The translations under genes were made by a program, and so were the position numbers. A stretch of DNA of 62,432 bases, taken from positions 1 to 62,432 of the IMG/VR virus record IMGVR_UViG_3300037882_001611, one strand, 5' to 3'. This document shows, piece after piece, positions 5,814 to 58,258 of the stretch. Under the pieces are notes generated by a model. That model had not been told where the DNA came from. It searched no databases and worked only from the letters and a program-made list of their open reading frames with translations. The stretch comes from a virus (lineage: Duplodnaviria > Caudoviricetes). How positions within the stretch are numbered: the stretch's first letter is position 1; each line of letters opens with the position of its first letter.

Positions 5814-5826
5814 GGAATAATCTCTA

Positions 5827-7050
5827 ATGCTTAACTATAATGCCCCTATCGATGGCCAGAAGTCGTCCATTGACGGTACTGGCTCCGATCAGATGGAAAC
5901 CTTTTTCTGGCTGAAGAAGGCAATCATCGACTCGCGGAAAGAGCAGTATTTCATGCCGCTCTCTTCAACCATCAATATGCCGAAGAACTTTGGTAAGACC
6001 ATCAAAGTTTTCCAGTATGTCCCACTGCTGGATGACCGCAACGTCAACGATCAGGGTATCGATGCAAACGGTGTAACCATTGCCAATGGCAATCTTTATG
6101 GTTCCAGCCGTGATGTCGGTGCCATTGCCAGCAAGCTGCCTGCTCTCACCGAGAATGGTGGACGTGTGAACCGTGTCGGCTTCACTCGTCTGAGTCGTGA
6201 AGGTTCGATTCACAAGTTCGGCTTTTTCACTGAGTTCACTCAGGAATCGATGGACTTTGACAGTGACTCGGATCTGATGTCCCATCTCAGCCGTGAGCTG
6301 ATGAATGGCGCTGTTCAGCTCACTGAAGCAGCTCTCCAGATGGACCTTCTCGCTGCTCCCGGTGTGGTGCTCTATGCTGGTGCAGCTACGGATGTGGATG
6401 AAATCACTGGTGAAGTGGATACGGTTCCCAATCCAGATACTCCGGCGTCCATTGTAGATTACGAAGATCTGATGCGTTTGGACCAGATTCTCACGGACAA
6501 TCGTACTCCAACGCAGACTACGATCATCAAGGGCAGCCGTTTGGTTGATACGGTTACGCTCGGTGCTACTCGTATTCTGTTTGTTGGTTCCGAACTGGTT
6601 CCACTTCTGAAGCGAATGAAGGATCTGTTCAACAACAAGGCGTTCATCGAAATTCAGCATTATGGTGATGCTGGTATGGTGATGAACGGTGAAGTCGGCT
6701 CTATCGACAAGTTCCGCATTATTCAGGTTCCTGAAATGCTGCACTGGGCTGGTGCTGGTGCTGAGGTTAATGACAACCCCGGTTATCGTTCGACCACTGT
6801 TGGCGGCACAGAACGCTATGACGTATATCCAATGCTCTGCATTGGTGAAGATAGCTTCGTTACCATTGGTTTCCAGACTGATGGTAAGACGGTCAAGTTT
6901 AACGCCATGACCAAGATGCCCGGTAAGGAAACGGCTGACCGTAACGATCCGTTTGGTGAAACTGGCTTCAGCTCGATCAAATGGTACTACGGTATCCTTA
7001 TCAAGCGTCCGGAACGGATTGGTGTTATCAAAACGGTTGCTCCGATCTAA
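5827..7050 (+). CDS. Major capsid protein (N4 gp56-like)
   Basis: [30 protein letters not shown] and [16 protein letters not shown] motifs; strong SD and downstream terminator. Confidence 0.95.
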
Positions 7051-17200: not shown

Positions 17201-20200
17201 AGCCTGCGATCAACACCGATGAGCAGGAAGCTCAGACGGTTGAGAAGATGTATCCGGCTCTCCTTGGTTCCAAGATGAACCGACTTTGGCGTTCGTTCAA
17301 AATTCCGAAGATCAAATCAACTCGGACGTTCGCTGTCGAAAGTCCGATTACGATTGTGCGTGATGGTCTAAAAAATGAAACGACTTTCCGTCAATTGATT
17401 GATGGAGATCTGAACCGTAAGTTCACATCTGAAATTGCTAAAGCATACGAACAATATCTCCAAATTGGAGATGCATTGTTGGAAACTTTGGATAATCGTC
17501 TTCAGGCATTTTTGAATAAATCCGCTACAAAAAAAGCTGGTATTGACAATGCTATAACTTGGCTAAATGGTCAGGCGGTAAATATTGTTGATCAAAATGA
17601 AGACGGATCATATTCGTATAATCAAAAGCTCATCGAGAATGCTGTGCTGGCCAGTCTTCAATGGTATCTGAAGATGAACCAGTATGGTGGTAATCTGGAT
17701 GAAAAGGATGTACGCAGTCTCCTTCGTCTTCCGATTGGTTCTGTATTGCCTGAAGGTCTTGTCGATGACATCAACAATGCTGGTATGGGGCCAGCCGAGA
17801 TGTCTCGTTCATTGTCTCGTGAGATCCAGCGTTTCTGGGGTTTGGAAACTGACAGCTCACAACCTCGGAATTTCTCAGAAGGTGTTCCTGAAGGTGTAGC
17901 CAAGGAAATCCTTGTTGCCATGCTCGATGTTGGTTTGTTGAAACTGAACGAAGTAGACATTTCGAGCGTCACAACAAACGAGAATATTGATCATCTTAAT
18001 CGCTATCAGATGAACACGGTAGATGCAGATGGAAAGACAAAAGTCATTCCTGCTGATCATCCTATTCGTCAATTTCCTACAGCTATTGAAAAAGCTGTTC
18101 TGACTGAAAGTGAAGAGATTCATTATCTCGGTCAACTCCCCCCTGCTCCATCGAAAACACAACTTCGAAACGACGCTGTGGAGAATACTCCTGAACAGCT
18201 TCGTTCGCTTGAAAAGCAGCAAGCAGTTGAGCATCGATTGAACATGCCATTTATTGAAATGATTCAACAGATGGGTGAGGTAATGGTACTTCGCTTATTT
18301 GGTGGTGGAGATATTGAAAACACTCCACTAAACCAAAATCATAAGAAGACTCTTGCTGGGCAGAATCTTACACTACAATCAGCCTATCTGTCGATCATGT
18401 CATTGGTTGCTGAAGCTCAGAATAAAGCTGATCTGGATGGTATCGATATAGGTGATCTGGCGATTCACTTTGCTTATAATGACACAGTGGTGAACCGTGC
18501 CCAGATGTTGGGTAAGGATAATCCTCAATCGAACAAGTTGATGCGTGAAGCAATTTTGCCGACTTGGAAAATTCTGGATTTAACAAATGGATCTGTTCGA
18601 GATCAGTTTTTCATGGGTCTGGCTCAGGCTTTAGGTGTGAAAGTTCATACGCAATCTCGTGAACAGACAATGAGTGATCTTCAGAAGAAGCTAGATGGTT
18701 TCACTGAAACACTCTCAATTATGACTGATACCAGTCAATTGAAGTTCACTCCGGAAATCATCGATACGATGAAGTCTGAAGGTGTAAATAGCGTTGCTGG
18801 TTTGCACGCTTTGATGGAATATGCTCGATATCAGGCTTCAGAAGATAAATCTGCTTTCCGTACTTCAATCTATTTTGAAGCAGATGGCGTTACCAATGGT
18901 GTTATCAATGCCATGGCTCTATTCTCATCTGGACCATTTACTTCTGAATGGTTGGAGAACATCGCTCGCGGTGGATATAATGTTGGAGAAGAACCACTTT
19001 CGTTGGCTCAAATTCGAACTCGTTTTTCGAAGGCTGCTGCTGACCTTTATGGTTTGGCCGGAACGAAAACGACTGAATATATAAAAATGCTTCGTGAGAA
19101 GTACCGAGATCAAAAAGAAATCACTGCTCAGTTTAATGCGATTCGTGATCTGCTAACTGAGTTTCTTAGTGATGGTATCGGAGTCAATGAGAACAACGAT
19201 TTGATCGTTGATCGTGGTGCTGTGAAAAATCCGCTTACTATAACAATTTATGGTGCGGGCGCTGAAGGCATTGCCGGTAACATTGTTGATGAATTGGTGT
19301 CGAGGATTTACGAACGTATGTCTTTGACAGCACAGCGTATTGCTGAAGATCCTGATCTAACTGAAGCTCAAGCATTTTACGGTGGTGATGTTCAGACTGC
19401 TGAAATCAAGTTCAAACAATTGATGTCGAATTTGAATGCTATTGTTGCTAATCGTCTTGTGATGAACGATGGTGAACTTGTAGTAGAAAACATTATCAAA
19501 GGTAGTGCAAAAACTTTTGGTGATCCAAAGGCTTTCACATTTCCGAAAGTCGGAATCGATACGATCCGACAAAATATGCTTCATGCTTTTGTCGAACCAA
19601 TGATTGATGGTATCACTGATACAGTTGGTGCTGATCTGATGAACAATCTGACGATCATCAAGACACAAATTCAATCATGGTCTCTGATCGGTAAATTTGC
19701 TTATCAAGCAGCGTATAACGAAGCTATTTTGGAGAAGCGAAAAGCTAATCCAGAAATGAGTAAGAATGAGTTGCTTAGCCGTCGTGAAGAACAGACGATC
19801 ATGAAAAAAGTTTGGAAACAACTTCCATTTTTTTCAACTGGTTCACAAAACTTCTTGTTTGGTATGAAGCAAGCAATGGATGTTCGTACCGAATTTGCTC
19901 GTGGTTTCAATGATGAATTGAATACTCCAGCATTTGGTTATACGCCTGATGATGCAGGTGTTGCTGGTATTCCGGGTATCACTATTGGTACTGGTGATGG
20001 TCAGACTGTGCTCAATGCTATCGCTGATTCTGATATGCCCGAAGGCTTTATTCAGATCTTTGATGGCATTCACTCGTCAGTGCTTGATATGGAGACTATG
20101 GGTCGTGTTGCCAACAAAGCGGTGTTTGATGCATGGCAGAACAATCCGCTCGATGATCTGTCGAAGGCGTTTGGTTCTTTCGTCGATCAGGTGGACCTGT

Positions 20201-23200
20201 CTGATCTGACCGAAGAACAACGAAAGGCTTTGACGAAGAGCCTGTTTCCTCCTCGGTTCTGGCGTACTGCTCAGCCTGCTGATGTGCTCAAAAAAGCTCT
20301 TGAGGATTGGTTAAAGCGTGGTGAGGAAGCTGCTCAAGGAATTGCTGAACGTCACGCCGTGATGGCACAAGTTCAGTCTTCTGTGGATCAGATGGCAGGT
20401 GCGTCAGCTCCACACCAAATCGAAGGCTTGATCCTTTCTGGTTCCCCGGAACAGAAAGCTGCTGCTATGGAACGTCTTCGCTATGGTGATCTTGAAGTTG
20501 AGCAGGGGGCCGAACAACGCGAGATTGATTTGCGACAAGCAAATCAATCGAGTCCGGCCCCAACTTTCAAGCAGGTAACTCCGAATTTGATGGCCGGTAT
20601 GCTGGATAAGGTTATCGGCAAGATCACGAGTGATCGTCTTACACGTGCTCTGGTGCGAGATGTTATTCGTTCAGGTCGAGTAGACGATTATCAAATCCAT
20701 ATTGGAAGTCGTGAAGAACTGCTGACCAAAGCCGTTGATCTTGGTATTCAGATCCCATCGAATCGTGCTGGGTTTGAAGGTTTCATACATCCACAATCAA
20801 AATCGATTTTTGTAGTTGATGGTAATTCTGAAACTATTCTGCACGAACTAATTCATGCAGCTACATACAGCATTCTTGAAGATTTTTATAACAAGGATGC
20901 TGTTAGTAATCTGACTCCTGATACTATGGATGCAATCCGGCGTATTGAAGGTTTGATGGATGAATTCAAAAATGCTGATCTTGAAGGAGAAGCATATCAG
21001 AATGCTTTGGACGAAATGGAACGTCAGGCTGCTTCTGGAAATCAAGCAGGTGAACTCAACGAGTTCATGGCATGGGCATTGTCGAATGCTGACCTGAGCA
21101 GCCAACTCAAGGAGACAAAGATCGATAAGGCACTTCGTATTGCCCGATCAGTGATCCAGTCTCTGAAGCATCTCCTATGGGGCCGGAAGCGTTCGGCTGC
21201 CGTCAAGGATGATATGTTCACGAACCTTCGATTCAACACGAACATCATCATGCGTAGTCAGCAAAAGGTTGCTGAGACGGCCTCGGATGGAGTGTTGTTC
21301 CATGATCCTAATTTTGGTCAGTCTTCTCGTTTGACTGATCTAATGAAGCGCTTGAAATCAAAAATCATCGATTATGTAGATACGGATCCTGTAACTCATG
21401 TGATCAATCGTCGTAAACTTACTCCCGCATTAACAAATGCTTCTCGGGTTGCTGTTGCTTTTCAGAATGCTGGTTTTAATATGACAAAACAGGAGCAGAT
21501 GGCTTTCATTCATATGATAGCCATTATGGGAACTGATGCTCAGTTAGATGCTAATAGTACTTTACGTATGCAAGAATTGTTTACGCATGTCGGAAAGCAT
21601 TTGTCTCTGGAAAGCTTTATGCGTAATCCAAATCAGAATGATCCGGCTGATATTGATCAAGCTACACAGAAATTCAATATTCTGATGGGTAAATTTGCTC
21701 CTCGAAAGGATGCTTTTGATCGCAGTGTAGTACTTCCAGCATTTATTGCTTTGGCAACGGTTAATGAAGATTTCCGAAAGATTTTATCAGAAATGGAAAT
21801 GCCGAAGACCAAGTATGCACAATGGGATTCTGTAAATAATATTCTGGATAATATTGGGGATACGTCAATAGACAATCTGTCTCGATGGGTTTCTGGTGAA
21901 GGTGTTCGTACTAAGGATGTTCAAGTTGCCCTTGATGGTTTGATGGGACAGATGCTTGATACTGCTCAGGAAAGTAGACTTTATATTGAAAAGTTTACCA
22001 ATCCTGCCGGTGATGGCATTGATCGAGTAAATCAAACAGTCATTGAAGCAATGGACTGGGTAGGTAAAAAAGCTTCTGAAAATGCTAAAAATATCCAAAC
22101 TAATAATCCAGATGCGAAGATCCGTATTGGAATAGCAAGAAGCCTTCAAACCATTACTGGATTACTGAATGAACAAAATGGTCATGCTTCAGCGGTAGAG
22201 TTGATGTCGGATGCTAATCGTACAAAAATTTGGCGTCCAATTTACGATCTATTGAAAGATTTGGTAGGACGTACTACTGAAAACGCACAAGTTTATGATC
22301 TGATTAAAATCGCTCGGACTTGGGTCAATGGCATTCGTCAGCAATACCGTGAGCAATTTCCTCGGATCGTAAACAGCAAATTCAGTCGTGAACTCACGGA
22401 TGATGAGCAGAGCCATTTATATCGTGGTTTGGGTGAAACTGATTTTGCTTCACTGATGCGAGGAAATAATATTGAGCGTGTGCTTGAATTGATAAGCGAC
22501 CAAGCTGCTCGTGATGTTGAGATTCGAAATCAAATCTCTAAGATTGAAGGACTGTCGCCAGAGAACGCAAAACGTATTGAAAGCAAAGCACGCCAGCTTG
22601 CAAAATATATGGTCTCGAAGAAGAATGATCACGGGAACCTGCTTCGTAATGCTGAAGCTATTGCTCATCTTCTAAATGAGAATGGTGTGAAAGGTACTGT
22701 GACCAGTCAGGCAATGATTGATGCGATTGATCATCTTGTATCAGTTCTAGCATTCAATGAATTGAGTGATGCCTCGAAGATTTCACTTTCTTCTTTGGTT
22801 CAAAGCGAAGCCAAGGGTCTGACGTTCATCATGTCCTATCTTCAGGGACAGGATGAAATCGACCGTGCCAAGGCAACAGGGAATGCTCGGTTCAATCACT
22901 TCAAGGGATACATGCCCTCTGAGGCTGCACAGGGCGTGAGCCTGTTGGTTTCGCATGAGAGTCGTGCTGCTGGATTGCTGGAGAAGAGTTACACCCGTCT
23001 GCGGGCTTTCAGCGGTTCATCAAAGGATCCTACGGCTGGAAAACGCGATTATTATTTTGCTCCTGTATCTGGTCGTGCTCGTTTCTCTCAAGGCATTATG
23101 CAAAATGTTCAGCAGACAGTTTCTGGTGTAGATAAAGCTACAGGGTTTTCTATTGGCTTAACAGGAGGTCTTATTACTGATCCATTGTTGGTGGCTAAGA

Positions 23201-24621
23201 TCACAGCAGATCGAACCAAGGAAACTGGATTAGCTTTGATGCCTCTCTTTGATGAAAACGGGAATCTATTTGCATATGAACGAAGCATTGACCCTGCGAT
23301 GTTGGATTGGCTCCAGCTCAAAACGAACATGTCTCAGGCTATGGGCATTCGTTCAGGTCGTCAGGTTGAAGAAGCTTTGTCGCATGAGTTGAACAAGACA
23401 CTCATCAACCGTCTCCGGGATATGTGGAATAAAGATAAGCTCATTCGTTCGAGTGAATATATCAATCTCTTCAAGAGCAATGATCCAATTCATAAAGATG
23501 CTGTGAAGATTTTCTCGAATGAGACAATGGAATATATCCGAGCACGGTTTCCTGAAGGTTTCTACGTGCGAAAAGATATGATTGATGATGCGATTGGTTA
23601 TCGGTCTGCGTCTATTGGTGATGTTTGGACTGGTAATTCACGTTGGTCTCCTGCCACTCAGGAGCAGGTGAAGAAAATTTTGATGGGAATGTTTGGAAAC
23701 AAAGCATATCAATATGCAGTGCGAGCCGAATCGCTTCTCCAAAATGTCATACAGGATCTTCGAGTTGCTATTGTCATCAAGAGCATTATAGTTCCAATGG
23801 CAAATGCTGCGAGCAACATATATCAGCTCATTGGACGTGGTGTGCCCGTTGTTCAGATCTTCCGAAGCATTCCAAAGAAGACTTCTGAAATTGAAGCATG
23901 GCATAAGAGCCGGATCCGTCAGATCGAAGCAGAAGCTGAATTGATGGCGACGACTGACATTTTGGAACGGCGTCGTCTTGAAGCTGAAATTCAGACGATC
24001 AAAGACAGCCACAAGCGTCTATCAATTTGGCCATTGCTTCAAGCTGGTGAGTTCAGTTCGATCTCTGATGCTGGTTCGCGAGACGATATCCTACTGTCAG
24101 AAGGAAAGCTCAGCGAATATCTGGAACGTGCGGTCAACAAGTTGCCGAAGTCAATCCAGACGGCTGGCAAATATGCCATCATCTCGAAGGATACGGCACT
24201 GTTTCGTGCTCTTCAAAAAAGTGTCGAGTATGGCGACTTTGTTGCCAAGAGCATCTTTTATGATGATCTCGTTAAACGTCAGGGAAAAACGAAGGAAGAA
24301 GCACTTGGTCGAGTGACTGAAGAATTTGTGAATTATGATCGTCTTCCGGGACGTGATAGAGCATATCTTGAAAGCATCGGTCTTCTTTGGTTCTACAACT
24401 TTAAGATTCGTTCATCAAAGGTTGCAGTAAGTATGATTCGGAACAATCCGGTTCATAGTCTTATTTCAATGAGTTTACCACTTCCCATCAATGGAATTGG
24501 TACATCTCTCGAAGATAATCTTTGGGTTTCATTGTTTGATGGTCGTGCGTCTAACTCTATGGGATTTGGAATGGCATTCCGAGCACCGGGTCTTCTGCCG
24601 CTTAATAATTTGCTTTGGTAA
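14278..24621 (+). CDS. Virion-encapsidated RNA polymerase (N4 gp50-like)
   Basis: 3447 aa; FEADGVTNG (motif A), RGAVKNPLTITIYG (motif B), QIFDG (motif C); hallmark of N4-like phages. Confidence 0.97.
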   Translation: MATNYQDILNQYLAANPITNPDIFGTPVPKVQQVEEATNQKRREAYALSSMAADGSGYRSASQRDRDYVMMTPYQFQAKYGEEVARNLQADVSNMDAARRGDIQGRRDGITTLGDTINSAGMGFVNSLGGIAAFGLGLVNDDAGVWTSRKLGDLNEFTQSFQSDQLNAARRSYGVQQELDTRDNAANYEQNRKRFGDTVANLWRVGADVVNSVGNSFDTPMLAQDTIASGVGSLFAGGPIAKGLKVIGSAAVKGATIARPSLLLSETAGKAVSIGSKAAMPAAIGLMEGGGAYQQTAEAAYEQLRTREDLTEDQKIEMANNAALKAAAIQIPIGVATGSLVSRFEASPLRVPTVRGAASNMLKETVEEGVQSGSGQLAQNVALSQEVNPEQDLLQGVGEQIGLGALGGAGSAGVVQAPGVALRASVETAKLPFRAAGAALSYAGDRIKARNQRVQDDVLVGLHDEATIAAPDAQIEADQIIGASDAPEEVKATARNFVAQTIERLSNSTAIQEVAKRVTNVKTDIRERLGALSELSPMVHESEATQNQETPEVLQGSLIQSIKDVVANTVQSESVQKAKEQGIKLYEKYAPIINDEMKAALKKFDAHLAKHGNEVASNLPSIEVTVNDVQSELNKSTQLIVGMAEQTPEQVDPDVADRILYHSENGGINLTAPQKVTLRSASATARAVQKGSELASKYGLVNAAEVSRQVLTSAPKEDSNLSLYGHLEEIRMAYNSGDLDLATQRFADLRSFAQSQSNKVAAFNQALIGGNTSSHRPVVYDAHVGEGKFRPTSTSRVNLSPTSANSIKIAQQVAVEAVTLANAVNNLSDAFPDLGIEHIAVPLLDVSLNGEATTVAQEYRTGKRKVSVNTTDSVQTGLEPVIDVNNVENIGAEVMKEQGGQSSEFDEAGASISDPGQVVSEQTEQTEVEPDSAKMQQSEEISEPKQTEEIASSEQNQKEGADAPKEQAPEVVQEKPAINTDEQEAQTVEKMYPALLGSKMNRLWRSFKIPKIKSTRTFAVESPITIVRDGLKNETTFRQLIDGDLNRKFTSEIAKAYEQYLQIGDALLETLDNRLQAFLNKSATKKAGIDNAITWLNGQAVNIVDQNEDGSYSYNQKLIENAVLASLQWYLKMNQYGGNLDEKDVRSLLRLPIGSVLPEGLVDDINNAGMGPAEMSRSLSREIQRFWGLETDSSQPRNFSEGVPEGVAKEILVAMLDVGLLKLNEVDISSVTTNENIDHLNRYQMNTVDADGKTKVIPADHPIRQFPTAIEKAVLTESEEIHYLGQLPPAPSKTQLRNDAVENTPEQLRSLEKQQAVEHRLNMPFIEMIQQMGEVMVLRLFGGGDIENTPLNQNHKKTLAGQNLTLQSAYLSIMSLVAEAQNKADLDGIDIGDLAIHFAYNDTVVNRAQMLGKDNPQSNKLMREAILPTWKILDLTNGSVRDQFFMGLAQALGVKVHTQSREQTMSDLQKKLDGFTETLSIMTDTSQLKFTPEIIDTMKSEGVNSVAGLHALMEYARYQASEDKSAFRTSIYFEADGVTNGVINAMALFSSGPFTSEWLENIARGGYNVGEEPLSLAQIRTRFSKAAADLYGLAGTKTTEYIKMLREKYRDQKEITAQFNAIRDLLTEFLSDGIGVNENNDLIVDRGAVKNPLTITIYGAGAEGIAGNIVDELVSRIYERMSLTAQRIAEDPDLTEAQAFYGGDVQTAEIKFKQLMSNLNAIVANRLVMNDGELVVENIIKGSAKTFGDPKAFTFPKVGIDTIRQNMLHAFVEPMIDGITDTVGADLMNNLTIIKTQIQSWSLIGKFAYQAAYNEAILEKRKANPEMSKNELLSRREEQTIMKKVWKQLPFFSTGSQNFLFGMKQAMDVRTEFARGFNDELNTPAFGYTPDDAGVAGIPGITIGTGDGQTVLNAIADSDMPEGFIQIFDGIHSSVLDMETMGRVANKAVFDAWQNNPLDDLSKAFGSFVDQVDLSDLTEEQRKALTKSLFPPRFWRTAQPADVLKKALEDWLKRGEEAAQGIAERHAVMAQVQSSVDQMAGASAPHQIEGLILSGSPEQKAAAMERLRYGDLEVEQGAEQREIDLRQANQSSPAPTFKQVTPNLMAGMLDKVIGKITSDRLTRALVRDVIRSGRVDDYQIHIGSREELLTKAVDLGIQIPSNRAGFEGFIHPQSKSIFVVDGNSETILHELIHAATYSILEDFYNKDAVSNLTPDTMDAIRRIEGLMDEFKNADLEGEAYQNALDEMERQAASGNQAGELNEFMAWALSNADLSSQLKETKIDKALRIARSVIQSLKHLLWGRKRSAAVKDDMFTNLRFNTNIIMRSQQKVAETASDGVLFHDPNFGQSSRLTDLMKRLKSKIIDYVDTDPVTHVINRRKLTPALTNASRVAVAFQNAGFNMTKQEQMAFIHMIAIMGTDAQLDANSTLRMQELFTHVGKHLSLESFMRNPNQNDPADIDQATQKFNILMGKFAPRKDAFDRSVVLPAFIALATVNEDFRKILSEMEMPKTKYAQWDSVNNILDNIGDTSIDNLSRWVSGEGVRTKDVQVALDGLMGQMLDTAQESRLYIEKFTNPAGDGIDRVNQTVIEAMDWVGKKASENAKNIQTNNPDAKIRIGIARSLQTITGLLNEQNGHASAVELMSDANRTKIWRPIYDLLKDLVGRTTENAQVYDLIKIARTWVNGIRQQYREQFPRIVNSKFSRELTDDEQSHLYRGLGETDFASLMRGNNIERVLELISDQAARDVEIRNQISKIEGLSPENAKRIESKARQLAKYMVSKKNDHGNLLRNAEAIAHLLNENGVKGTVTSQAMIDAIDHLVSVLAFNELSDASKISLSSLVQSEAKGLTFIMSYLQGQDEIDRAKATGNARFNHFKGYMPSEAAQGVSLLVSHESRAAGLLEKSYTRLRAFSGSSKDPTAGKRDYYFAPVSGRARFSQGIMQNVQQTVSGVDKATGFSIGLTGGLITDPLLVAKITADRTKETGLALMPLFDENGNLFAYERSIDPAMLDWLQLKTNMSQAMGIRSGRQVEEALSHELNKTLINRLRDMWNKDKLIRSSEYINLFKSNDPIHKDAVKIFSNETMEYIRARFPEGFYVRKDMIDDAIGYRSASIGDVWTGNSRWSPATQEQVKKILMGMFGNKAYQYAVRAESLLQNVIQDLRVAIVIKSIIVPMANAASNIYQLIGRGVPVVQIFRSIPKKTSEIEAWHKSRIRQIEAEAELMATTDILERRRLEAEIQTIKDSHKRLSIWPLLQAGEFSSISDAGSRDDILLSEGKLSEYLERAVNKLPKSIQTAGKYAIISKDTALFRALQKSVEYGDFVAKSIFYDDLVKRQGKTKEEALGRVTEEFVNYDRLPGRDRAYLESIGLLWFYNFKIRSSKVAVSMIRNNPVHSLISMSLPLPINGIGTSLEDNLWVSLFDGRASNSMGFGMAFRAPGLLPLNNLLW

Positions 24622-49992: not shown

Positions 49993-51978
49993 TTAGAACT
50001 GAAGGTTATAGGCACGGCGATCACCGGACCCGGAAGTGACAATGACAACACAAGTATCGTCACGAGTCGAAGAGAAGCCCAGACCAGACAGACTGTCTGG
50101 GATAGGTTCACACTTGGTTTTGGAACCAAGCACCTCAAACACCTTGCGATGTTCGTTGAGGTCCGAACGGAGAAATTCGTTATAAATTCCCCGAGTTGGT
50201 TCTGGGTTATTACACCCAGAAAGTATAAAGAACCAGTGTTTATTGCCCTTACCAATCTGTCCATCCCAATGATTTGGAGACAACATGAGCGTATCGACCG
50301 GAACGAAAGTTTCTGTCTTGATGCCCCATTTATCTTTTGAACCAGTGGAAGAAACCAGTTTCTTGTTGACCACCAAATTCTTGAGTTGGCCAGCGAACAT
50401 TTCGAATTGAAAGACTTCATGTTGTTCTTTGGATTTCATTTCGAAAGCATAAGTATAGATCTTGCTTTCACCATTAGCCCAAAGTTCGAGAGTGAAACCC
50501 GGATCACGGGTATGACGCTTCGAGAACTGATGGATTGAAACAGCATACTTACCGTCACGAGGACGTTTCCAGCTCAGATTTTCGACGGGATCGACTTTGT
50601 TATGGTGATTAAGGCTGTTTGTATCAACATCGAGAATGCTCTTCGTATTATGATAATAAATATGTCCTTCGGGGCATTGAGCGTGCATGTCAAGGTCATC
50701 ACCATTGTACCATGCAAGTGAAACTCGCAACGGCACTTCGGTGTTACCACCTGCACGCTTGACCTTTTCCTTGATGGAGTCGGTGACTTCACCATCATAG
50801 GACCATGCAAATTGGTTATCCCATTGGAACAACCGAGCAGGATCATCTGAACCAGTGAGACTGACAAAGTTGTTGAGATGGCGATTTTGGACCATGAGAT
50901 CCATTGCTGTAGCAGTCGGCAGCACATCCTTGAGGAAGTCTTCGATTTTGATGGTTTGAGCGTCTTTGTATGACGGTAAGGGTTTGGTGGCCATGGCTGG
51001 AGCCAGAATCTCCATCAAACCACTGTCTTTCATCTGTGATTTTTTGGTTCGATTGGCCCAGAGAACATTATTGATGCTGACATCAGAGATTCGAGCAAAC
51101 CGACGATGTACAGCAGCTTCGAGACCAAGGCTCTTCAACTTATCGACAGCTTGTTCAGCCATTTTGGGCGTGATGAGAGCAGAGGTTCGCTTGTAGTTTT
51201 CGGGGGCTACCTTTGATTCGAACATTTTGACGGCATCTTCCAGATCTACACCTGTAGACAGGTCAGTTAGAAGAGTACCAATAACAGTATTGCGGAAACG
51301 AGCTTTCGGATCACTGACGTTAGCCCAGATGAAAGCATCACGATCTGAAGCTTCATTATACTGCTTCTGGATCTTTTGGAATGCCTTGACTGAGGCAAGA
51401 TGTTCTTTACCACGATAGATAGATTTGCTCTCAATGAGATCAATCACCGTTTCGAAGGATGCGGGAGTCAGTTCTTCCAGACCACGTTTGAAAACATGAA
51501 CGGTAGTGTTCAGATCACCACGATCCTTATCGGGAGTTGTACTGAAATGCTTGTCAGCAACTCGACCGTAGAAGTGATGCCACATGATAATTTCATGGTT
51601 GTCGGCATTGCTTTCGTGGCTGTATTGGCGTTCCTTGGTTCGGAATACACTGATAATGGGAGCCTGACGAACCAATGCCTGCATTGTACGTGCAACAGTA
51701 GCATAGGGTTCAGGTAGGTCAACCAAGTTATCCCAGACGGTGAGGCGAAGATGGGTGATCGGATCAATGCCCACGAGCAAACCGAGGCGTCGGATAAACG
51801 ACTTACAGCAGTTGCAGTCATGGACCGTTCGTTCACGAAAAATAGGATCAGTGCCTTCAGGGAAAGCAGCTAGATAACTGGCGAAGATGTCTTCGACATC
51901 AACGACGAACAGTTCATGCTTCTGCATGGCTGCATATTGGGCATGAACTGCCTTTGAAAAGATTTGAAATTCACTCAT
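49993..51978 (-). CDS. Large conserved phage protein with HDCNCC motif and YfaP/DUF2135-like domain
   Basis: YLAAFPEG...HDCNCCKSFIR; LRVSLAWYNGDDLDMH...LDVD...PVEN; start MSEFQ at 51978 follows GGAG. Confidence 0.65.
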   Translation of the reverse strand: MSEFQIFSKAVHAQYAAMQKHELFVVDVEDIFASYLAAFPEGTDPIFRERTVHDCNCCKSFIRRLGLLVGIDPITHLRLTVWDNLVDLPEPYATVARTMQALVRQAPIISVFRTKERQYSHESNADNHEIIMWHHFYGRVADKHFSTTPDKDRGDLNTTVHVFKRGLEELTPASFETVIDLIESKSIYRGKEHLASVKAFQKIQKQYNEASDRDAFIWANVSDPKARFRNTVIGTLLTDLSTGVDLEDAVKMFESKVAPENYKRTSALITPKMAEQAVDKLKSLGLEAAVHRRFARISDVSINNVLWANRTKKSQMKDSGLMEILAPAMATKPLPSYKDAQTIKIEDFLKDVLPTATAMDLMVQNRHLNNFVSLTGSDDPARLFQWDNQFAWSYDGEVTDSIKEKVKRAGGNTEVPLRVSLAWYNGDDLDMHAQCPEGHIYYHNTKSILDVDTNSLNHHNKVDPVENLSWKRPRDGKYAVSIHQFSKRHTRDPGFTLELWANGESKIYTYAFEMKSKEQHEVFQFEMFAGQLKNLVVNKKLVSSTGSKDKWGIKTETFVPVDTLMLSPNHWDGQIGKGNKHWFFILSGCNNPEPTRGIYNEFLRSDLNEHRKVFEVLGSKTKCEPIPDSLSGLGFSSTRDDTCVVIVTSGSGDRRAYNLQF

Positions 51979-52028
51979 TGTTGTTCTCCGGGTTTGGACC
52001 GATAATGGTTTGAAAAAACAAACCAAAT

Positions 52029-52063
52029 AAAAAATCCCACGCCAAATGAATGACGTGGGATTT
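52029..52063 (-). terminator. Intrinsic terminator ending the ncRNA/tmRNA transcript
   Basis: AAATCCCACGTCA / TGGCGTGGGATTT stem followed by TTTATTT on the - strand. Confidence 0.75.
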
Positions 52064-52400
52064 CTTCTAACAATTCTGTTGCAAGGCTGTTAGAAGCCCC
52101 TATCTGCTACCTATTAGGCAGCAAGACGAAGTGCCATTACTGGCGAATTGTCGTTGGCATTTGTTGCTAACTATCCCGTCACGGTGGGCCATTCCGGATC
52201 GCGTTCAATTTCAGTCTTTCGGATCGAGACTATTTCACCCCCATCAACTGCCCTGTGGGCTCGCCCGTCGAGCCCGGACATGCACTCAGAGAGGCACTTC
52301 CTGCTTTGGCGATCATTCCCACAGGACAGATGGTGGAGGTGGCGGGTACCGCCCCCGCGTCTCCGATTGTCTTACGTTGATCGAATTACGATCATATCCT
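52064..52400 (-). ncRNA. ssrA: tmRNA, circularly permuted two-piece (alphaproteobacterial type); tag ANDNSPVMALRLAA
   Basis: Acceptor piece ends GAC-GCGGG-GGCGGTA-CCCGC-CACCTCC-ACCA (CCA end at 52331); 88-nt intervening segment; coding piece starts GGGGGTGAAATAG at 52242 and pairs with CACCTCC, giving G3-U70; tag frame 52158-52117 followed by TAA TAG. Outer ends are approximate. Confidence 0.93.
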
Positions 52401-52419
52401 GAAGAATAATGCCCCCTAG

Positions 52420-53798
52420 AGCTTTAGGCAAGAGGGGTGATAACGGTGCATCATTCTTCTGAATTTGCAAACTCGGATGGCCTGCTGGTATATTGCTACA
52501 TTGAAAGCACAGGGACCAGCAGGGCGCACCAAAGATGAACCCGCAAGCATTGGAGTGTTTCAGATCCCATAAATGGGGTACGTTTCTCTTCCAATGCAGG
52601 CTTCGTCATTCCTAAATATCGTTGTATTCAGTAACTAATTTAACGAGTTGAGTCTGATAACTCAATACAGCTAGTCAATGCTGTATCCCCTGTTCGGATG
52701 CCTATTCAGGCAAATTTCGTGCTTTAGAGTTTATTATATTGGACTATCCAAAGCTGACCAATGTGCTTGCTTCGATGTCTCTAGCCACAATGTAGCTTCG
52801 TTTCTTTCGATGCCACGGAGATACGTGGGTTGTTTGGATCCGAGGGAACCAACCTCGCTAAGCCACCCTTAGGGCCGATCTACGTCTTAGGCCGCTCTCG
52901 TTAGTAATGATAGCTCCCCTGTGACCGAGCCGTCCTCAATTGCAGAACTTAATCTACGGAGAGGATGCATTGGGATCGAACCAATACCATCACCAATTCA
53001 AAAGGTGTTCGGGTACATGGACTCTAGGTTACACCCGTATGACCGTCAATTCTCGTTCCACTTGAGGTTTTGTCAGTGCCCGCCTGACTACACAATGCCG
53101 CTTAACGTCCATCTATTCACAGAATAGTGTTAGGACGACGGGAGCATGAATAACTCTGGTTCACGGAGCTTCTAATTGAGAGCACAACTTTCAATTTCGA
53201 TGCTAATTTCCTAACCAGTCTCCGTGTTCCCCAATCGGTACACTATGAGCAGTTTCCAACCGTTTCGATCTTCCTTGTCCTCCGGTCATGACTCCGGACG
53301 ATTAGAAGACACTGGTTGAACTCTTATTTCCGTTTCCACCCACGGTGCTGAGAGCGTATCATCAGACCCGGTGGATCTAGGCTTATCCAAAGTACCAGAG
53401 CCATGGTGGCGCCTATCTGGTTCATCCCAGCAACGGTCTGAATGGTCCTAACAATCATTCAGACTTTTTCTTGGTTTTAGAACATCGCAAAAAACCAATA
53501 TTCTCATCTTAGAAGGCCGGACCACCGCTTCGTTGCGACTTCTCGTGTTCGGCATGATCAAGAACCAAATTTCGACCTGCTACTATTAGGTGTTTAGGTC
53601 TATCAGCCTTCAAAAATGAGAGTGACCGTCATCGTTGGGAGCTACCCAATCACATCTGCCCAGTCAAGCCACCTGAATGTTTAATAAGATCTTTGAGGCC
53701 CATTCAGACTGAAGGTTTGAAGCCTCAAGAAATCACGCTATTCCTGCTGTGTACTTTAGCAGTTTTTTATCTATTGCAATAGATAAACATCTAAGCGT
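52420..53798 (-). ncRNA. Unassigned large structured non-coding region (one large or several smaller RNAs)
   Basis: No - strand ORF of 60 aa or more over ~1.4 kb in an otherwise densely coding genome; many stems; flanked by a hammerhead and tmRNA. Confidence 0.6.
52962..53037 (-). other. Degenerate tRNA-like element
   Basis: Perfect T-arm ATTGG-TTCGATC-CCAAT preceded by a 5-nt spacer and a 17-nt anticodon-like arm; D-arm and CCA not evident. Confidence 0.35.
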
Positions 53799-53844
53799 GG
53801 GTATGACCATTTGGTTTCGTCTCATAAAGACTCATCAGATACCC
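53799..53844 (-). ncRNA. Hammerhead ribozyme, type I
   Basis: - strand GGGTAT CTGATGA GTCT-TTATG-AGAC GAAA CC-AAAT-GG TC ATACCC: stem I, CUGAUGA, stem II, GAAA, short stem III, GUC cleavage triplet. Confidence 0.88.
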
Positions 53845-53910
53845 TGTATTTTTAGTTTGCCGCCCTGACTCTGGGGGATTGAGCCAGAGCGACAAACCAA
53901 AAAACCAGAC

Positions 53911-54417
53911 TTATTCAGTCACTGCCAGTTCAGCGGTTGGTACAGCGGTTGGTTCAACCAATGGTGCTGCTTGGGTCTGAACTCCAGATTCTGTAATCGT
54001 GGAAGCATTGGAAACAGTGTCCTTGGCTTTGACGCCAAGACCGATCTGTTTTGCCAATGCAGCACGAGTGCTAGAATAGTTGGGAGCCGTCATCGGATAA
54101 TCAGCGGGAAGATTCCACTTGGTGCGATACTGATCCGGCGTCATGCCATAATGCGTCATCAGATGGCGCTTGAGCATCTTCAGTTTCTTGCCGTCTTCAA
54201 GGCAGACAATATAGTCAGGCTTGACCGAGGAACGGATCGAAACTGCTGGTTCCTGAGCAACGACTTCAGGTTCGGGAGCCTTCTGCGTGTTGTTCAAGGC
54301 ATCATAAGTGCTCTGGATGAGGCTTGACAGTTCATCGGCACGGATGGTGGTGTTCGATACAAAAGCCGAGACGATACCTGTGGTCATTTGCAGAATTTTG
54401 AGTTCAATGTCATTCAT
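53911..54417 (-). CDS. mucR: MucR/Ros family zinc-finger transcriptional regulator
   Basis: IVSAFVSN, PAVSIRSSVKPDYIVCLEDGKKLKMLKRHL...YRTKWNLPADYPMTAPNYS...LAKQIGLG; ATG at 54417 follows AGGAG. Confidence 0.94.
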   Translation of the reverse strand: MNDIELKILQMTTGIVSAFVSNTTIRADELSSLIQSTYDALNNTQKAPEPEVVAQEPAVSIRSSVKPDYIVCLEDGKKLKMLKRHLMTHYGMTPDQYRTKWNLPADYPMTAPNYSSTRAALAKQIGLGVKAKDTVSNASTITESGVQTQAAPLVEPTAVPTAELAVTE

Positions 54418-54447
54418 TTCATTTCTCCTGTGTGAGCAAATACTCAC

Positions 54448-54965: not shown

Positions 54966-55325
54966 TCAACAGATCGGGTCTGACCAGAGTGGCATGAAGC
55001 CTTGTTGTTTGAGCCAAGATCCTACAGGACCAAAGCCGAAATGAGCCAGTCCAAGCTCTACCAAACGCCAAAGAGGTCGATTACGCGGCATTTGACGATA
55101 GCTCATGAGATGGACTTGATAGCCCTTTTCAAATAGCAGCAGAGCTTCTCGAATTTGAGCTTTGGTAAGCTTTTCTTCAGATTTTATTATAGTGTCTGTT
55201 GATCTCCATCCACGAGTATACGCCCGGAATAATACAATGCCCCAATGATTGGGGCACTGCATATCCCAGTCAAATTCTCGGTGTTTTTTACCTAAACGAA
55301 ACGCTGCTTTAGGAGAGGGCATAGT
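54966..55325 (-). CDS. Hypothetical protein
   Basis: ORF overlapping the RNAP2 stop; start uncertain (MPSPK region). Confidence 0.4.
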   Translation of the reverse strand, partial: TMPSPKAAFRLGKKHREFDWDMQCPNHWGIVLFRAYTRGWRSTDTIIKSEEKLTKAQIREALLLFEKGYQVHLMSYRQMPRNRPLWRLVELGLAHFGFGPVGSWLKQQGFMPLWSDPIC

Positions 55326-56514
55326 CTGCGCTCCCGATGCTTTGCCATAGGTATGGGTCAAGTTTACCAACTGTCACAGTTCGCCCAACGAGTTGGGAGA
55401 TCAAATGGCTCAGCATTTCGCTTTTAGCAATAAGCATGAGTTGACGGGTGTACTGTTCCCTGAGATCATTGCCGTAGTTAGGATGGCAACGGAAGCAATC
55501 ATGAATACTGATCACCTTGAATGGCTTCTCGGGGAGACTCTCAAGCAACTCCCAGATGGTGGAGACATCGACATGTCCCAAATTATCCGTGTTGAGATGC
55601 TGAAGGATACGGGCAGAGAGATACCCGCTGTTTTGGTAGTGGTTCCAGAGAGTAACAACGAGCTTATCGTCGTTGCTTTTGGTTTCGTGTCCGTACAGAC
55701 TGTTGTCTCCAGAAAATAGGTCATAAAGATAGTTGACCTTTTGTACGTCATAGTCGCAGCGGCGAGTCATTTCTCTAACGATCATCCCATCGATGCTGTG
55801 AATAGTATTTGCACCGAGTGAACGGCCTTGCTTCATTGGTTGATTGATCCGATGATAGTAGTCGAAAGGCTGATTGAGAAAGTTCACAGTTTCTTTTATG
55901 GAGTCCATGACTTTAATTTTAACATGGAAATTGTCGGGCAATATCCAGTCATGGGAATCTGTATTAGGATCCCAGAGAAGCAGCATAGTTTCGTTGAGTT
56001 CCCATGCTCCGGGAGCATTAGTGATCATTGTGTTGTAGAACAGATCCAAGAGAGCACCTTCACCGAAGATGCGTTTGGGTTGAGCCTTGCTGCTATAGAG
56101 AGCTGTCATGATCGCGTCTTTGCAATCATCACGGCTGATTTTGGCAGTTTCTCCCAGTTGGTTCAACATGATCTGATAGATCTTGGTATAGGCATCTTCA
56201 CGTTTGCCTGTGGAGACCACATTGCAAAGTTCGGCTGCCAGACGATCTCCCGTCAGAGCAGCCAAGAGCTGCAAGCCACTGGAGGTGGCATCGAGTGAGA
56301 TCATATAACCAGTGGGTTGTCCTGCTACAGCAGCATTGTAAGCTATACAGCCTGCATAGAAGAGAGCAGGTTCTTTAGCTTGGTGGATTAGTTCAGCGAT
56401 GCTGTTCTGATGTTGATCGAACCATTGGATGCGTTCATCCCAGTTCAGTTTGTCAAGGCCGAAGCTATTAGCGATATCGATCTTGATATATTCGAGTGAA
56501 GTGAATTTCTGCAT
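55309..56514 (-). CDS. RNA polymerase II subunit 2 (N4 gp16-like)
   Basis: YIKIDIANSFGLDK, LDATSSGLQLL (motif A), RDDCKDAIMTALY (motif B), IHDCF (motif C); start MQKFT at 56514 follows GGAG. Confidence 0.92.
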   Translation of the reverse strand: MQKFTSLEYIKIDIANSFGLDKLNWDERIQWFDQHQNSIAELIHQAKEPALFYAGCIAYNAAVAGQPTGYMISLDATSSGLQLLAALTGDRLAAELCNVVSTGKREDAYTKIYQIMLNQLGETAKISRDDCKDAIMTALYSSKAQPKRIFGEGALLDLFYNTMITNAPGAWELNETMLLLWDPNTDSHDWILPDNFHVKIKVMDSIKETVNFLNQPFDYYHRINQPMKQGRSLGANTIHSIDGMIVREMTRRCDYDVQKVNYLYDLFSGDNSLYGHETKSNDDKLVVTLWNHYQNSGYLSARILQHLNTDNLGHVDVSTIWELLESLPEKPFKVISIHDCFRCHPNYGNDLREQYTRQLMLIAKSEMLSHLISQLVGRTVTVGKLDPYLWQSIGSADYALS

Positions 56515-56848
56515 TTCTAATCTCCTGCATATGGCATGATTGCCGCGTCTTGGGGATTTATTCTGGATCACCTTCTTCAAGAGTTTTGAGAATATTTTCC
56601 GCTTCAGTACGAATATCGTGCATAATCGGAACAACATCTCTTGATTGATCTTCAGATAAAAAGATGATTCTATTCGCAATTTCAGCGATTATCTCTTCCA
56701 TTGTAGTCATTCTTGATCCTTCCAGAGGTTGATGTGGTCACCATACACTTTGTGCCAGTAACGCCACTTGAGCATAGTGATCCAAGCCCAAGAGAGTTTC
56801 CCTTGGGCTTGGTTCTGCTTCCGCATATACTTGCGAAGTCTATGTTGA

Positions 56849-57367
56849 TTAGACGACAAGTTCAGGTTCAGCCAACTTACGCTTCTCGTTCCACCGAGGG
56901 CGACGATTGTTGGCTTGTTCTTTGCGGGTAGCCCAGCGACAGTTTCCGGGTTCATAATTCCCGTCATTGTCGATACGTTCGATGGTCAACTTGTCTGTCC
57001 AGCCATTAGCAAGAGACCAGTCCTTGAAGGTCTGAAAGTCGTGCCATTCAGGGCAGACCTTAATGCCTCGATCAACGTAGGCATCTCGATCTTTACGAGT
57101 CGTATTAGGATTGCACCTTGCCATCATGTTTGACCATGAATTGAAGATGGGTGTTCTTGATGCACCATGAGTAGTGTTCACTTCAATGGCGTAACAGCCA
57201 CATGAAGTGGACTTTCCTTGCTTGAGGTTTTGCCAGAGAACGAGGGTCTCCTTGCCGCAGTCACAACGGCATTTTACACGCCGTTTGGCTCCTAGCTTGG
57301 AGACCTCTTCGATCAGGGTGAGTCGGCTCATTTTCGATCCGAGCGAGATCACATCAGCTTTCGGCAT
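56849..57367 (-). CDS. Free-standing HNH-type homing endonuclease
   Basis: [58 protein letters not shown]. Confidence 0.85.
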
Positions 57368-57370
57368 GGG

Positions 57371-58258
57371 TTATTCCATAGAGACTATTTCTTCATCCGC
57401 AAGCTGTATCACTGCCTTGTTCCAAGGAGCACCTTGATAGTTGACGTGATAACCTTGGCAGTACACACGTCCACGCTTGTCGTATTTGTGGGTGAGATGG
57501 AACTCATTTCCATGATCGACGAGCTTCGCTATCACTTCGTGACAACTACGATCATATTTTTCAAATGCACGTTTCCGGCGTTCGAAATCGTCTTTGGTTT
57601 CACCTTCTTTCGGTTTGTCCAAATTACGCCAAGAGTTGGCGATCATATTGGCCGTATCGATATTGATGGTGAAACGAACATTGTTCATATGATTGATGTG
57701 GTCTAGACATACATCATCATCATGATGGTTCTTTTTGAGAATGATTGATCCTCGGTTGAGCACATATCCAGTATCTCGGTTGCACTTTACCTTTCTGGGT
57801 CGGACAACCATAGGGAGAGGGAATTGGTAAAGATCCAATTCACGTTGGATATCTTCTGGAATCGTGAGAACAGGTTCTACAATGAGCTGTGAATAGGCAG
57901 GGTGCCAATGGAGCAAGTCCACTTCACAGCATTTCAGAATGGCATCTGCTACGTCCTGAACGTCATTATAATGATGACGTAGGATACCTACCATAGTTGG
58001 TAGAGTAGTTCGTTTATGGAGAGCCATTTGAACCAGAAGGGAGAAACCGAACGCGGGATCAATGCTGTTTAGTTTCATGAACTTGGTTAGGTCAAGTCCA
58101 GTGCGTTCTTTGAGTTCTACCTCGAAGTAGTTGTACAAACGAGGAAGAAGTTGGTTTTTGGAATAAAGCTTTTCAAGCTGAATCTGTGTCTGCATGTTGG
58201 CGTCTTGCACAGTAGTTCTCCTTAGAGTTGTTCGGTGATATGAGTTACACGGAAGCAT
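57371..58258 (-). CDS. RNA polymerase II subunit 1 (N4 gp15-like)
   Basis: LEKLYSKNQ, YQFPLPMV, LTHKYDKRGRVYCQGYHVNYQG; true start probably 30-60 nt downstream of the ORF-track start. Confidence 0.92.
   Translation of the reverse strand: MLPCNSYHRTTLRRTTVQDANMQTQIQLEKLYSKNQLLPRLYNYFEVELKERTGLDLTKFMKLNSIDPAFGFSLLVQMALHKRTTLPTMVGILRHHYNDVQDVADAILKCCEVDLLHWHPAYSQLIVEPVLTIPEDIQRELDLYQFPLPMVVRPRKVKCNRDTGYVLNRGSIILKKNHHDDDVCLDHINHMNNVRFTINIDTANMIANSWRNLDKPKEGETKDDFERRKRAFEKYDRSCHEVIAKLVDHGNEFHLTHKYDKRGRVYCQGYHVNYQGAPWNKAVIQLADEEIVSME

Follow-up and report, generated by a model that had tools for sequence, protein, structure and literature searches.

The 62,432-base window analyzed here is the whole of an IMG/VR virus record (IMGVR_UViG_3300037882_001611; completeness estimate of 84%), in which nearly all long open reading frames (ORFs) from ~25 kb to the right end lie on the minus strand. 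Two of these genes flank a long protein-free stretch: the upstream neighbor encodes a ROS/MucR-family regulator (MucR; 53911–54447, minus strand; Pfam PF05443, E = 6.5e-49) and the downstream neighbor encodes a 677 amino acid protein (49993–52026, minus strand; phrog_1735, E = 4e-224). Read 5′ to 3′ on the minus strand, the interval between them contains a long hairpin, a hammerhead ribozyme, a series of structured modules that we call F, E, D, V, C, B′, B, A′, and A, a transfer-messenger RNA (tmRNA), and an intrinsic terminator. We think it probable that the interval 52029–53910 constitutes a ‘stable-RNA island’ read on the minus strand, like all neighboring genes.

The stretch is non-coding. 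The gap is free of ORFs from 52448 to 53910, its longest start-to-stop ORFs encoding 68 and 64 amino acids (both on the plus strand), and under an 80 amino acid stop-to-stop criterion it is the sole internal gap of at least 500 nt in the window (52410–53868; 1459 nt), the other being the contig end. A pseudogene or coding remnant was ruled out, as all 27 stop-to-stop frames of at least 35 amino acids lack a Pfam or PHROG relative (best E-values 0.064 and 0.27). Coding under an alternative genetic code was ruled out as well, since stop-codon reassignment opens no credible frame in the gap (the longest is 178 amino acids with TAG read through, and 289 only with TGA as the sole stop). Substitutions relative to the related genomes described below show no three-base periodicity, 1-nt insertions or deletions occur inside blocks B, C, and F, and protein-like conservation is found in none of 22 open frames of at least 30 codons. 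The nearest to it, a 37-codon frame in module E with six synonymous and three non-synonymous changes, was judged non-significant after 22 tests. Candidate repeats, CRISPR, and tandem arrays in the stretch proved to be short chance repeats.

We searched Rfam at the gathering level across the whole window, at E ≤ 10 across 51900–54000, and with sub-stretches. The yield on the stretch was limited to the tmRNA and a sub-threshold hammerhead. The 19 matches at E ≤ 10 include no GOLLD, ROOL, 6S, Y RNA, RNase P, signal recognition particle (SRP), or transfer RNA (tRNA), and GOLLD and ROOL are also absent from the gathering-level matches in the whole window. An earlier sequence-only reading, which described 52420–53798 as a hairpin-dense RNA of ~1.4 kb on the minus strand, had likewise seen no RNase P or SRP signature and had been unable to place the region in GOLLD or ROOL by eye, and the covariance models return no other curated family for it either. 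No curated RNA family contains module A, B, D, E, or F. ARAGORN reports no genes in the window at default settings and, at 75% thresholds, five calls in 51900–54000 that are mixed with obvious noise. Apparent matches to mraW (30.2 bits against a cut-off of 50) and to microRNAs at 53833–53920 merely fit the long hairpin and were rejected.

DNA similar to the stretch is rare, with none in 50,697 GenBank phage records, in 41 further loci, or in the rest of the window. We compared the stretch with contigs of four public sequencing runs (X1–X4) from four studies, three of the runs being labelled aquatic or freshwater, and found it present at roughly 90% identity; one X1 contig (record 3) spans 52469–52899 with 37 differences and another (record 4) spans 53348–53932 with 54. 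Two metagenome contigs, L044 and L045, were recovered with a pattern drawn from the core conserved among the run contigs, and a second pattern, based on the hammerhead, recovered L049, a 99%-complete, 73-kb N4-like virus record with an RNA polymerase 70% identical to the window’s (protein level) and a syntenic ORF-poor region at 4304–6623. The sequence-only reading had suggested a homolog search in viral metagenomes, and the island is carried by four genomes: the window, L044, L045, and L049.

Other loci lack it. Among 29 further N4-like loci (RNA polymerase 38–70% identical) we found no gap, hammerhead, tRNA, or similarity, so the island is restricted to a small lineage. Loci found via the 677 amino acid protein (n = 7) and via MucR (n = 32) likewise have no gap, hammerhead, tRNAs, or similarity, and three pattern scans of viral contigs returned no new homolog (one gave only L049 again). 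A covariance model of module A (R1), run on 62 sources (833,627 bases) and five whole virus records, recovered no sequence beyond the four on which it was trained. A model of module B′ (R2) produced one weak extra match (L049 5188–5266; 19.3 bits, rough E of 0.012), a lead that falls short of proof of homology. A conserved motif of module F also occurs in two Fibrobacter metagenome-assembled genome contigs, within apparent coding sequence and with no further similarity, and was taken as chance.

Conservation within the gap exceeds that of the genes around it. Aligned blocks are 86–94% identical to L044 and L045, against 78–85% for the flanking genes; in the comparison with L044, identities are 89.6, 86.1, 94.1, and 90.9% for the non-coding blocks, 85.0% for the 677 amino acid gene, and 77.6% for the MucR region. 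At four-fold degenerate sites, 63 of 188 positions differ in the 677 amino acid gene and 25 of 63 in MucR, and the alignable blocks, which make up ~82% of the gap, change 3–5 times more slowly than these sites. By these comparisons the stretch appears to be under selection. Alternatively, a tRNA array or small early genes could have decayed in the gap and left remnants that are functionless now – an explanation with which one could square the real tRNAs at this place in relatives, two sub-threshold tRNA-like matches in L049 (25.2 and 23.7 bits against a cut-off of 29), and the lack of conservation in segment V and the junctions. The slow divergence of the aligned blocks, the helices kept through compensatory changes (described below), and the absence of any coding remnant in the gap frames make this explanation barely credible.

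Comparison of the four genomes and of the run contigs shows a modular organization, in which blocks of ~100–250 nt closed by their own helices are gained, lost, replaced, or reordered, and a tRNA, a 146 amino acid ORF, or a tmRNA is found between blocks in one genome or another. Module F (53651–53798; this and all following modules on the minus strand) lies downstream of the ribozyme, holds a palindromic hairpin at 53766–53787, and is 92% identical to L045; its 3′ half is kept in L049 (nhmmer E of 1e-15 to L049 5971–6172, ribozyme included). Module E (53502–53622; 91% identity to L044, alignment z-score of −3.0) is a domain closed by a long terminal helix. Module D (53334–53468; 93–94% identity) combines the hairpin at 53436–53464 with two further domains. 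Segment V (53153–53333) is variable: L044 and L045 have unrelated sequence in its place, and X1 contigs skip it. Module C (53002–53152) holds a nested hairpin at 53106–53137 and an invariant ~50-nt stretch with a sigma-70-like site (TTGACG-17-TAGAGT at 53049–53021), which ends ~18 nt before a tRNA-Ala in L044.

Downstream of module C lie B′ (52902–53001), a permuted tRNA-like cloverleaf discussed below, and module B (52721–52901), which is 91% identical to L044 and L045. The core of B (~52830–52895) is kept in L049 (nhmmer E of 8e-4), with 24 pairs, 7 of them changed on both sides. Module A′ (52623–52720) consists of three short hairpins that are present in L044 and deleted in L045 (alignment z of −3.7 with one compensatory pair; single-sequence z of −2.9). 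Module A (52473–52622) is the only module common to all four genomes and has two hairpin domains, the first containing the stem at 52547–52597 and the second the stem at 52481–52523. It matches L049 3077–3194 with an nhmmer E of 6e-9, and there it sits 1.1 kb further on, behind two ORFs (one of 201 amino acids and one for a HIRAN-domain protein).

The genomes differ in which modules they carry. L045 is without A′, B′, C, and E. L044 is without F and the ribozyme; its C and B′ have a tRNA-Ala(cgc) exactly between them, and a 146 amino acid ORF lies between its D and E. L049 carries F-, B-, and C-like blocks in another order, along with a tRNA-Arg(tct) and a hammerhead. Among the run contigs, one from X1 lacks the tmRNA (joint 52044>52469), X1 contigs show deletion joints at 53153>53334 and 53067>53334, and a 78-base insertion occurs at 53467/53471. 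The two L044 inserts are an 81-nt tRNA gene (2073–2153, minus strand) and an ORF (2601–3041, minus strand) that belongs to no Pfam or PHROG family. A ‘tRNA-Thr’ called by ARAGORN in module E of L044 (85% thresholds) has no convincing T-arm by eye and was rejected.

The helices of these modules show covariation. For the A–B block in the three close sequences, RNAalifold returns 130 pairs, 11 of them compensatory, against 2.0 ± 1.5 in column shuffles (maximum of 6 in 60), with a consensus energy z of −3.8; over eight blocks together, 17 compensatory pairs compare with 4.2 ± 2.0 in column shuffles (maximum of 11 in 100). Module B taken singly has 4 compensatory pairs against 0.58 in shuffles (0 of 100), and module D has 45 pairs, 2 of them compensatory, with an alignment z of −4.9. 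For module A the distant L049 adds independent events. An alignment (A9) of 34 pairs keeps 95.5% of cells paired; with L049 included, 8 pairs are changed on both sides against 2.3 ± 1.2 expected (0 of 500 shuffles), and only 0–2 remain after sliding partners.

Individual stems behave accordingly, with differences between them. The sequence-only reading had named five, all of which are in the sequence where it placed them, and three of these – 53436–53464, 52481–52523, and the nested pair at 53106–53137 – have compensatory changes in relatives. In L049 the stem at 52481–52523 has five consecutive pairs all exchanged beneath an identical apical loop, and the module D pair 53442/53458 runs from A-U through G·U to G-C across the window, L044, and L045. 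The stem at 52547–52597 fared less evenly: its changes in the two close relatives are only of the G·U type (minus strand), and three of its pairs are unpaired in L049. The stem at 52721–52754 is broken by two changes in L045 and is not recovered by RNAalifold.

The well-supported modules are all self-closing, and comparison leaves no helix between modules standing. The sole long-range helix proposed by RNAalifold (alignment A2, columns 111–115 with 558–562) is broken in L045, and a candidate long-range F–D pairing (14-nt complementarity) has two mismatches in L045, while D’s own hairpin is compensated there. Because the supported modules self-close and no helix between modules survives, we favor a series of small stable RNAs, arrayed in a phage tRNA/tmRNA island, over one giant ornate RNA. 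The sequence-only reading had put forward a single large RNA of ~1.4 kb and kept an array of smaller RNAs as its fallback; the fallback fits better.

Under the single-RNA alternative, the stretch would encode a new class of large, multi-domain ‘ornate’ RNA comparable to GOLLD and ROOL, with the modules as domains and the variable blocks as peripheral insertions, and the entire molecule would work as one folded particle. The setting is indeed that of GOLLD and ROOL – a phage, tRNA-type neighbors, more than 1 kb, and many hairpins – and, where the sequence-only reading noted that such RNAs are often found next to tRNA-type genes, a tmRNA is adjacent here and tRNAs lie within the island in L044 and L049. 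GOLLD has been described as conserved in its 3′ portion and variable in its 5′ portion, with tRNAs sometimes located in a linker (bioRxiv 10.1101/2024.12.08.627333); here, comparably, the 3′-end module A is the most widely conserved and a tRNA lies inside the array in L044. Yet no long-range helix is supported, the F–D complementarity being broken and the modules self-closing as noted, a 146 amino acid ORF separates D from E in L044, and in L049 two ORFs part A from the rest and the B/C order differs. There is also no Rfam GOLLD or ROOL match at E ≤ 10. We consider a single ornate RNA unlikely. The island is like GOLLD and ROOL in being a phage-borne structured non-coding RNA region of more than 1 kb with tRNA-type neighbors and, in one relative, a tRNA in its variable part, and it is unlike them in lacking a supported long-range architecture and in having modules that are separable by ORFs and reordered. 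The resemblance is one of setting only.

Module B′ resembles a tRNA in permuted form. It comprises a closing stem around a T-arm hairpin (52967–52987, located by T-arm scan), a long middle hairpin, and a D-arm-like hairpin, and its minimum free energy (MFE) structure is identical to its centroid. All 8 of the substitutions that separate it from L044 fall in stems and keep pairing only as minus-strand RNA. Its elements follow one another as expected for a tRNA that is opened in the anticodon loop. For YrlA, Chen et al., 2014 (PMC4201824) describe a tRNA-like domain with the order T-arm, acceptor-like stem-loop, D-arm; compared by eye with that description, B′ has the same order. In contrast to YrlA, B′ gives no Rfam YrlA match at E ≤ 10 in 52880–53030 or 51900–54000, and no Ro-binding helix was recognized in it. 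By model, B′ is not a YrlA member. A TROVE/Ro60 gene (PF05731) was found in neither of two records searched (the window and the 99%-complete L049), while control genomes did match.

L049 contains further tRNA-like elements. The 25.2-bit element combines a good acceptor stem, D-arm, and T-arm with an ‘anticodon’ loop of 6 nt; the 23.7-bit element has no acceptor stem and weakly matches the B′ model too. A YrlA-like element (5668–5768, minus strand) scores 22.1 bits (E of 0.13, cut-off 69). Together these sub-threshold elements occupy 4586–4655, 5188–5306, and 5668–5768, all on the minus strand.

The 3′ end of the island carries an alpha-type two-piece (permuted) tmRNA gene (52065–52447, minus strand), a full-length match to the tmRNA of alphaproteobacteria (Rfam alpha_tmRNA, 106.2 bits against a cut-off of 50, model positions 1–355 of 355). 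The tmRNA_permuted model also matches this region (99.8 bits), and ARAGORN at 85% thresholds reports a permuted tmRNA at 52023–52423 with the tag ANDNSPVMALRLAA (none at default). The gene is absent from L044, L045, and one X1 contig, and its absence from such close relatives suggests recent gain or loss; we regard the tmRNA as an add-on to the island, outside the unassigned RNA proper. The sequence-only extent of 52420–53798 needs adjusting on this account: bases 52420–52447 belong to the tmRNA and the ORF-free stretch runs on to 53910, while the rest remains unassigned. Both the tmRNA at its start and the hammerhead one base beyond its end had been overlooked. An intrinsic terminator (52029–52066, minus strand; a 16-pair stem followed by a T run) closes the island just before the 677 amino acid gene, and its hairpin is also in L044 and L045. 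In GenBank the tmRNA has only partial similarity (8–17% of its length) to three alphaproteobacterial phages.

At the opposite end of the island we identified a complete hammerhead ribozyme core (53799–53844, minus strand; sequence GGGTATCTGATGAGTCTTTATGAGACGAAACCAAATGGTCATACCC) with stem I open, that is, in type I topology. Its core elements follow in order – CUGAUGA, stem II, GAAA, the A-U pair that opens stem III, the triplet GUC, and stem I – with the CUGANGA–stem II–GAAA core at 53838–53815 (minus strand) and a stem II of 4–5 pairs whose first pair is G-C. The predicted cut falls between 53805 and 53804. The MFE fold of 53799–53910 returns all three stems. A full descriptor (all core motifs, stem I of at least 5 pairs, stem II of at least 4, stem III of at least 3, H not G) has a single match in the window, whereas 100 dinucleotide shuffles of the complete window gave none. 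The Rfam scores are below cut-off (Hammerhead_3, 22.6 bits against 48.5; RAGATH-1-hammerhead, 17.7 bits against 56.3); the low Hammerhead_3 score reflects the inability of a type III model to accommodate this topology, and no type I score is listed because the table omits lower-scoring matches within one Rfam clan. In module D, another ‘CTGATGA...GAAA’ was rejected, as it has no stem II and its GAAA reads GAAC in L044 and L045.

Relatives preserve the ribozyme with changes. In L045 an A>G substitution gives a G·U pair in stem I, and in L049 stem I has a compensatory G-C>U-A exchange and stem III a different loop. Three further viral contigs (L046–L048) have type I hammerheads with a stem II identical to the window’s and a longer, covarying stem III. 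A literature search found no paper linking hammerhead ribozymes with N4-like phages; the window hammerhead adds to a known class an example from a phage group for which we found no report. It differs from the Rfam class in its stem III of 3 pairs, its stem I of 6, and its score below cut-off. Hammerheads flanking prophage genes have been suggested to process long transcripts (Perreault et al., 2011; PMC3088659), and the position of the window hammerhead, between a gene and the next transcript unit, is the same arrangement as in the prophage examples given there.

The other three hammerheads (L046 708–733, L047 2296–2321, and L048 1537–1562, plus strand; stem II and its loop identical to the window’s) lie in viral contigs of 34–77 kb, just upstream of a small ORF beginning MKKFL. 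In L047 a tRNA-Met and a tRNA-Arg are found 4.7 kb from the hammerhead.

Directly after the MucR stop codon, and thus ahead of the ribozyme, is a 23-pair hairpin (53849–53903, minus strand) that is not followed by a U run. L045 has three changes in it that preserve pairing on the minus strand only, and the hairpin is also present in L044. Hairpin and hammerhead together fold with a z of −5.6 on the minus strand.

Thermodynamic stability is modest by itself and does not choose a strand. The whole stretch (52448–53804) is more stable than dinucleotide shuffles on both strands (z of −3.3 on the minus and −5.4 on the plus, with 0 of 25 shuffles as stable on either), so folding beyond shuffled controls, as expected on the sequence-only reading, was found without being decisive. 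On the minus strand, five single modules reach z of −2.0 to −2.9 and F −1.4, and 200-nt windows stay near 0 across the middle kilobase. Comparative measures discriminate better. The alignment-based z favors the minus strand for A, A′, B′, D, and F (for B′, −5.0 vs −0.5; for F, −6.3 vs +0.4), one-sided pair-keeping changes number 29 on the minus strand vs 12 on the plus, and broken pairs 5 vs 11. G exceeds C on the minus strand only inside the gap. The stretch is most likely a functional structured RNA of the minus strand, as the sequence-only reading had proposed.

The strand question also bears on whether the inverted repeats instead act as DNA – as a replication origin, a packaging site, or promoter/operator arrays. 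The plus strand folds equally well or better in single-sequence tests, the palindrome at 53766–53787 is perfect over 22 bp, and the invariant ~50-nt stretch of module C contains promoter-like hexamers. We judge a DNA-level role very unlikely, as many changes keep pairing only as G·U on one strand, the alignment-based stability of B′ and F is confined to the minus strand, and a complete hammerhead core and a tRNA-like T-arm are meaningful only as RNA. The palindrome could also serve as the binding site of a protein dimer. Contigs from X1 and X3 have both 53773 A>G and 53780 T>C, a combination that preserves the hairpin.

Several observations weigh against an array of minus-strand RNAs. The plus strand folds well too (whole-stretch z of −5.4; modules A and D, −3.1 to −3.2), and blocks B, C, and E score equal or better on it in the alignment-based test. 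RNAalifold selects compatible pairs by construction, and one-sided compatible changes are not enriched (29 vs 28.1 in shuffles). Structures predicted from the window sequence by itself favor neither strand clearly: with the full MFE fold, compensatory, one-sided, and broken pairs number 3, 15, and 14 on the minus strand and 5, 9, and 16 on the plus; with Watson-Crick-only folds, G·U-type changes number 30 (minus) and 17 (plus), with 22 broken. Structure is weak in module C (alignment z of −1.1, single-sequence z of +0.9) and without signal in segment V (z of −1.25), and the module C promoter is a bare consensus match. The blocks were defined by alignability, and ~18% of the gap (V at 53153–53333 and two junctions) is unconserved, replaced, or deleted in relatives. 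With four carriers only, three of them close relatives, the covariation counts rest on few independent events. The hammerhead has a stem III of 3 pairs and a stem I of 6, is missing in L044, and shows no evident tertiary contact of the loop-loop or pseudoknot type between stems I and II, a partner not having been looked for systematically; short stems, no evident contact, and absence in L044 suggest that the ribozyme may be slow or dispensable. Finally, we infer rather than observe the transcription, cleavage, and processing of the island.

With these points in mind, an array of small stable RNAs would be produced as follows. The island may be transcribed with or behind MucR, and possibly also from the internal sigma-70-like promoter in module C, which may serve B′ through the tmRNA. 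A terminator-like hairpin (54479–54454) precedes MucR, and so MucR and the island may form one unit. Hammerhead cleavage at 53805|53804 would part the mRNA from the RNA array, leaving a 5′-OH end, and host RNases would process the array to small stable RNAs, much as tRNA operons are processed. The modules would evolve, and probably function, as separate units, gained and lost in the manner of tRNA genes in phage tRNA islands. The company of tmRNA, tRNAs, and tRNA mimics suggests a field of action in the host translation or tRNA-handling machinery or in tRNA-directed defenses, though this is a guess.

The same features might instead be cis-acting parts of a phage middle transcript that yields no stand-alone RNAs, with the hairpins serving as processing or stability elements or as a leader for the flanking genes. 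Module A and the terminator could then be an attenuator of the 677 amino acid gene, and the hammerhead and hairpin could form the 3′ end of the MucR mRNA. In L044 and L045 the terminator follows ~70–100 nt after module A, with the 677 amino acid gene next, module A in L049 is directly upstream of a small ORF, and the role in transcript processing suggested for prophage hammerheads (PMC3088659) would also suit this arrangement. However, 1.4 kb far exceeds the needs of known leaders, the tmRNA (~380 nt) stands between A and the terminator in the window, and the modules persist in L049 although the genes beside the island there are not those of the window. The tRNA mimic, tRNAs, and tmRNA among the modules point to stable RNA products. 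We regard a purely cis-acting role, including these attenuator and 3′-end examples, as rather improbable.

A bolder version of the stable-RNA array can be conceived, to which we give a correspondingly low probability: a co-transcribed battery of decoy or sponge RNAs, including a permuted tRNA mimic without a free acceptor end, would titrate host tRNA-directed enzymes or tRNA-cleaving defense nucleases, and at least one of the unassigned modules would be a self-cleaving ribozyme of a new class, such ribozymes being able to cut the array at module borders together with the hammerhead.

The tRNA gene cluster of phage T4 contains two non-tRNA stable RNAs that are co-transcribed with the tRNAs and cut from a common precursor. 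The window island is alike in its co-located non-tRNA RNAs and differs in scale, with about nine modules, a ribozyme, and a tmRNA against two RNAs. Structured non-tRNA RNAs in a phage tRNA island are a known kind, then, and it is the module families that are new. In the tightly packed genome of a phage, 1.4 kb of non-coding sequence under selection is an expense that ought to bring some return. The island offers covariation-supported RNA motifs outside any curated family, a hammerhead in an N4-like phage, a Y RNA-like tRNA mimic without a Ro protein gene nearby, and a phage two-piece tmRNA that is present in one strain and absent in close relatives. Within the limits set by a rare family (four genomes) and an uncultured host, it is a compact natural system for asking what purpose non-tRNA RNAs serve in phage ‘tRNA islands’, as has been asked for GOLLD and ROOL. 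The module-wise gain and loss among near-identical phages suggests fast, possibly defense-driven turnover.

Several features of its genome identify the window phage as an N4-like podophage. These include a 3447 amino acid ORF (14278–24621), an N4-type RNA polymerase in two pieces (PF00940 in 55309–56679; phrog_2166, ‘N4-like RNA polymerase’, in 57371–58258), and top protein matches to N4-like phages such as Pseudomonas phage Zuri (50.6%). The ROS/MucR gene and the alpha-type tmRNA point to a host that is probably an alphaproteobacterium.

We made several further observations on the surrounding genes and on other N4-like loci. Upstream of the RNA polymerase genes of two other N4-like contigs lie ORF-free gaps of 1.7 kb (L063 3602–5323) and 1.2 kb (L069 2114–3302), in which there is no tRNA, no hammerhead, and no similarity to the window island. 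The phrog_1735 family of the 677 amino acid neighbor is without known function or Pfam domain and occurs in 557 GenBank phage records, including N4-like, T4-like, and jumbo phages. Between the RNA polymerase genes at 57371–58258 and 55309–56679 lies an HNH endonuclease ORF (56849–57367, minus strand; phrog_374, E = 2e-54), and related ORFs occupy the same place in L049. In the 3′ part of MucR (53932–54077), 144 bases are exchanged for 120 others in one X1 contig; the C-terminal part also differs in length in L044 and L045, indicating a variable C-terminal tail.

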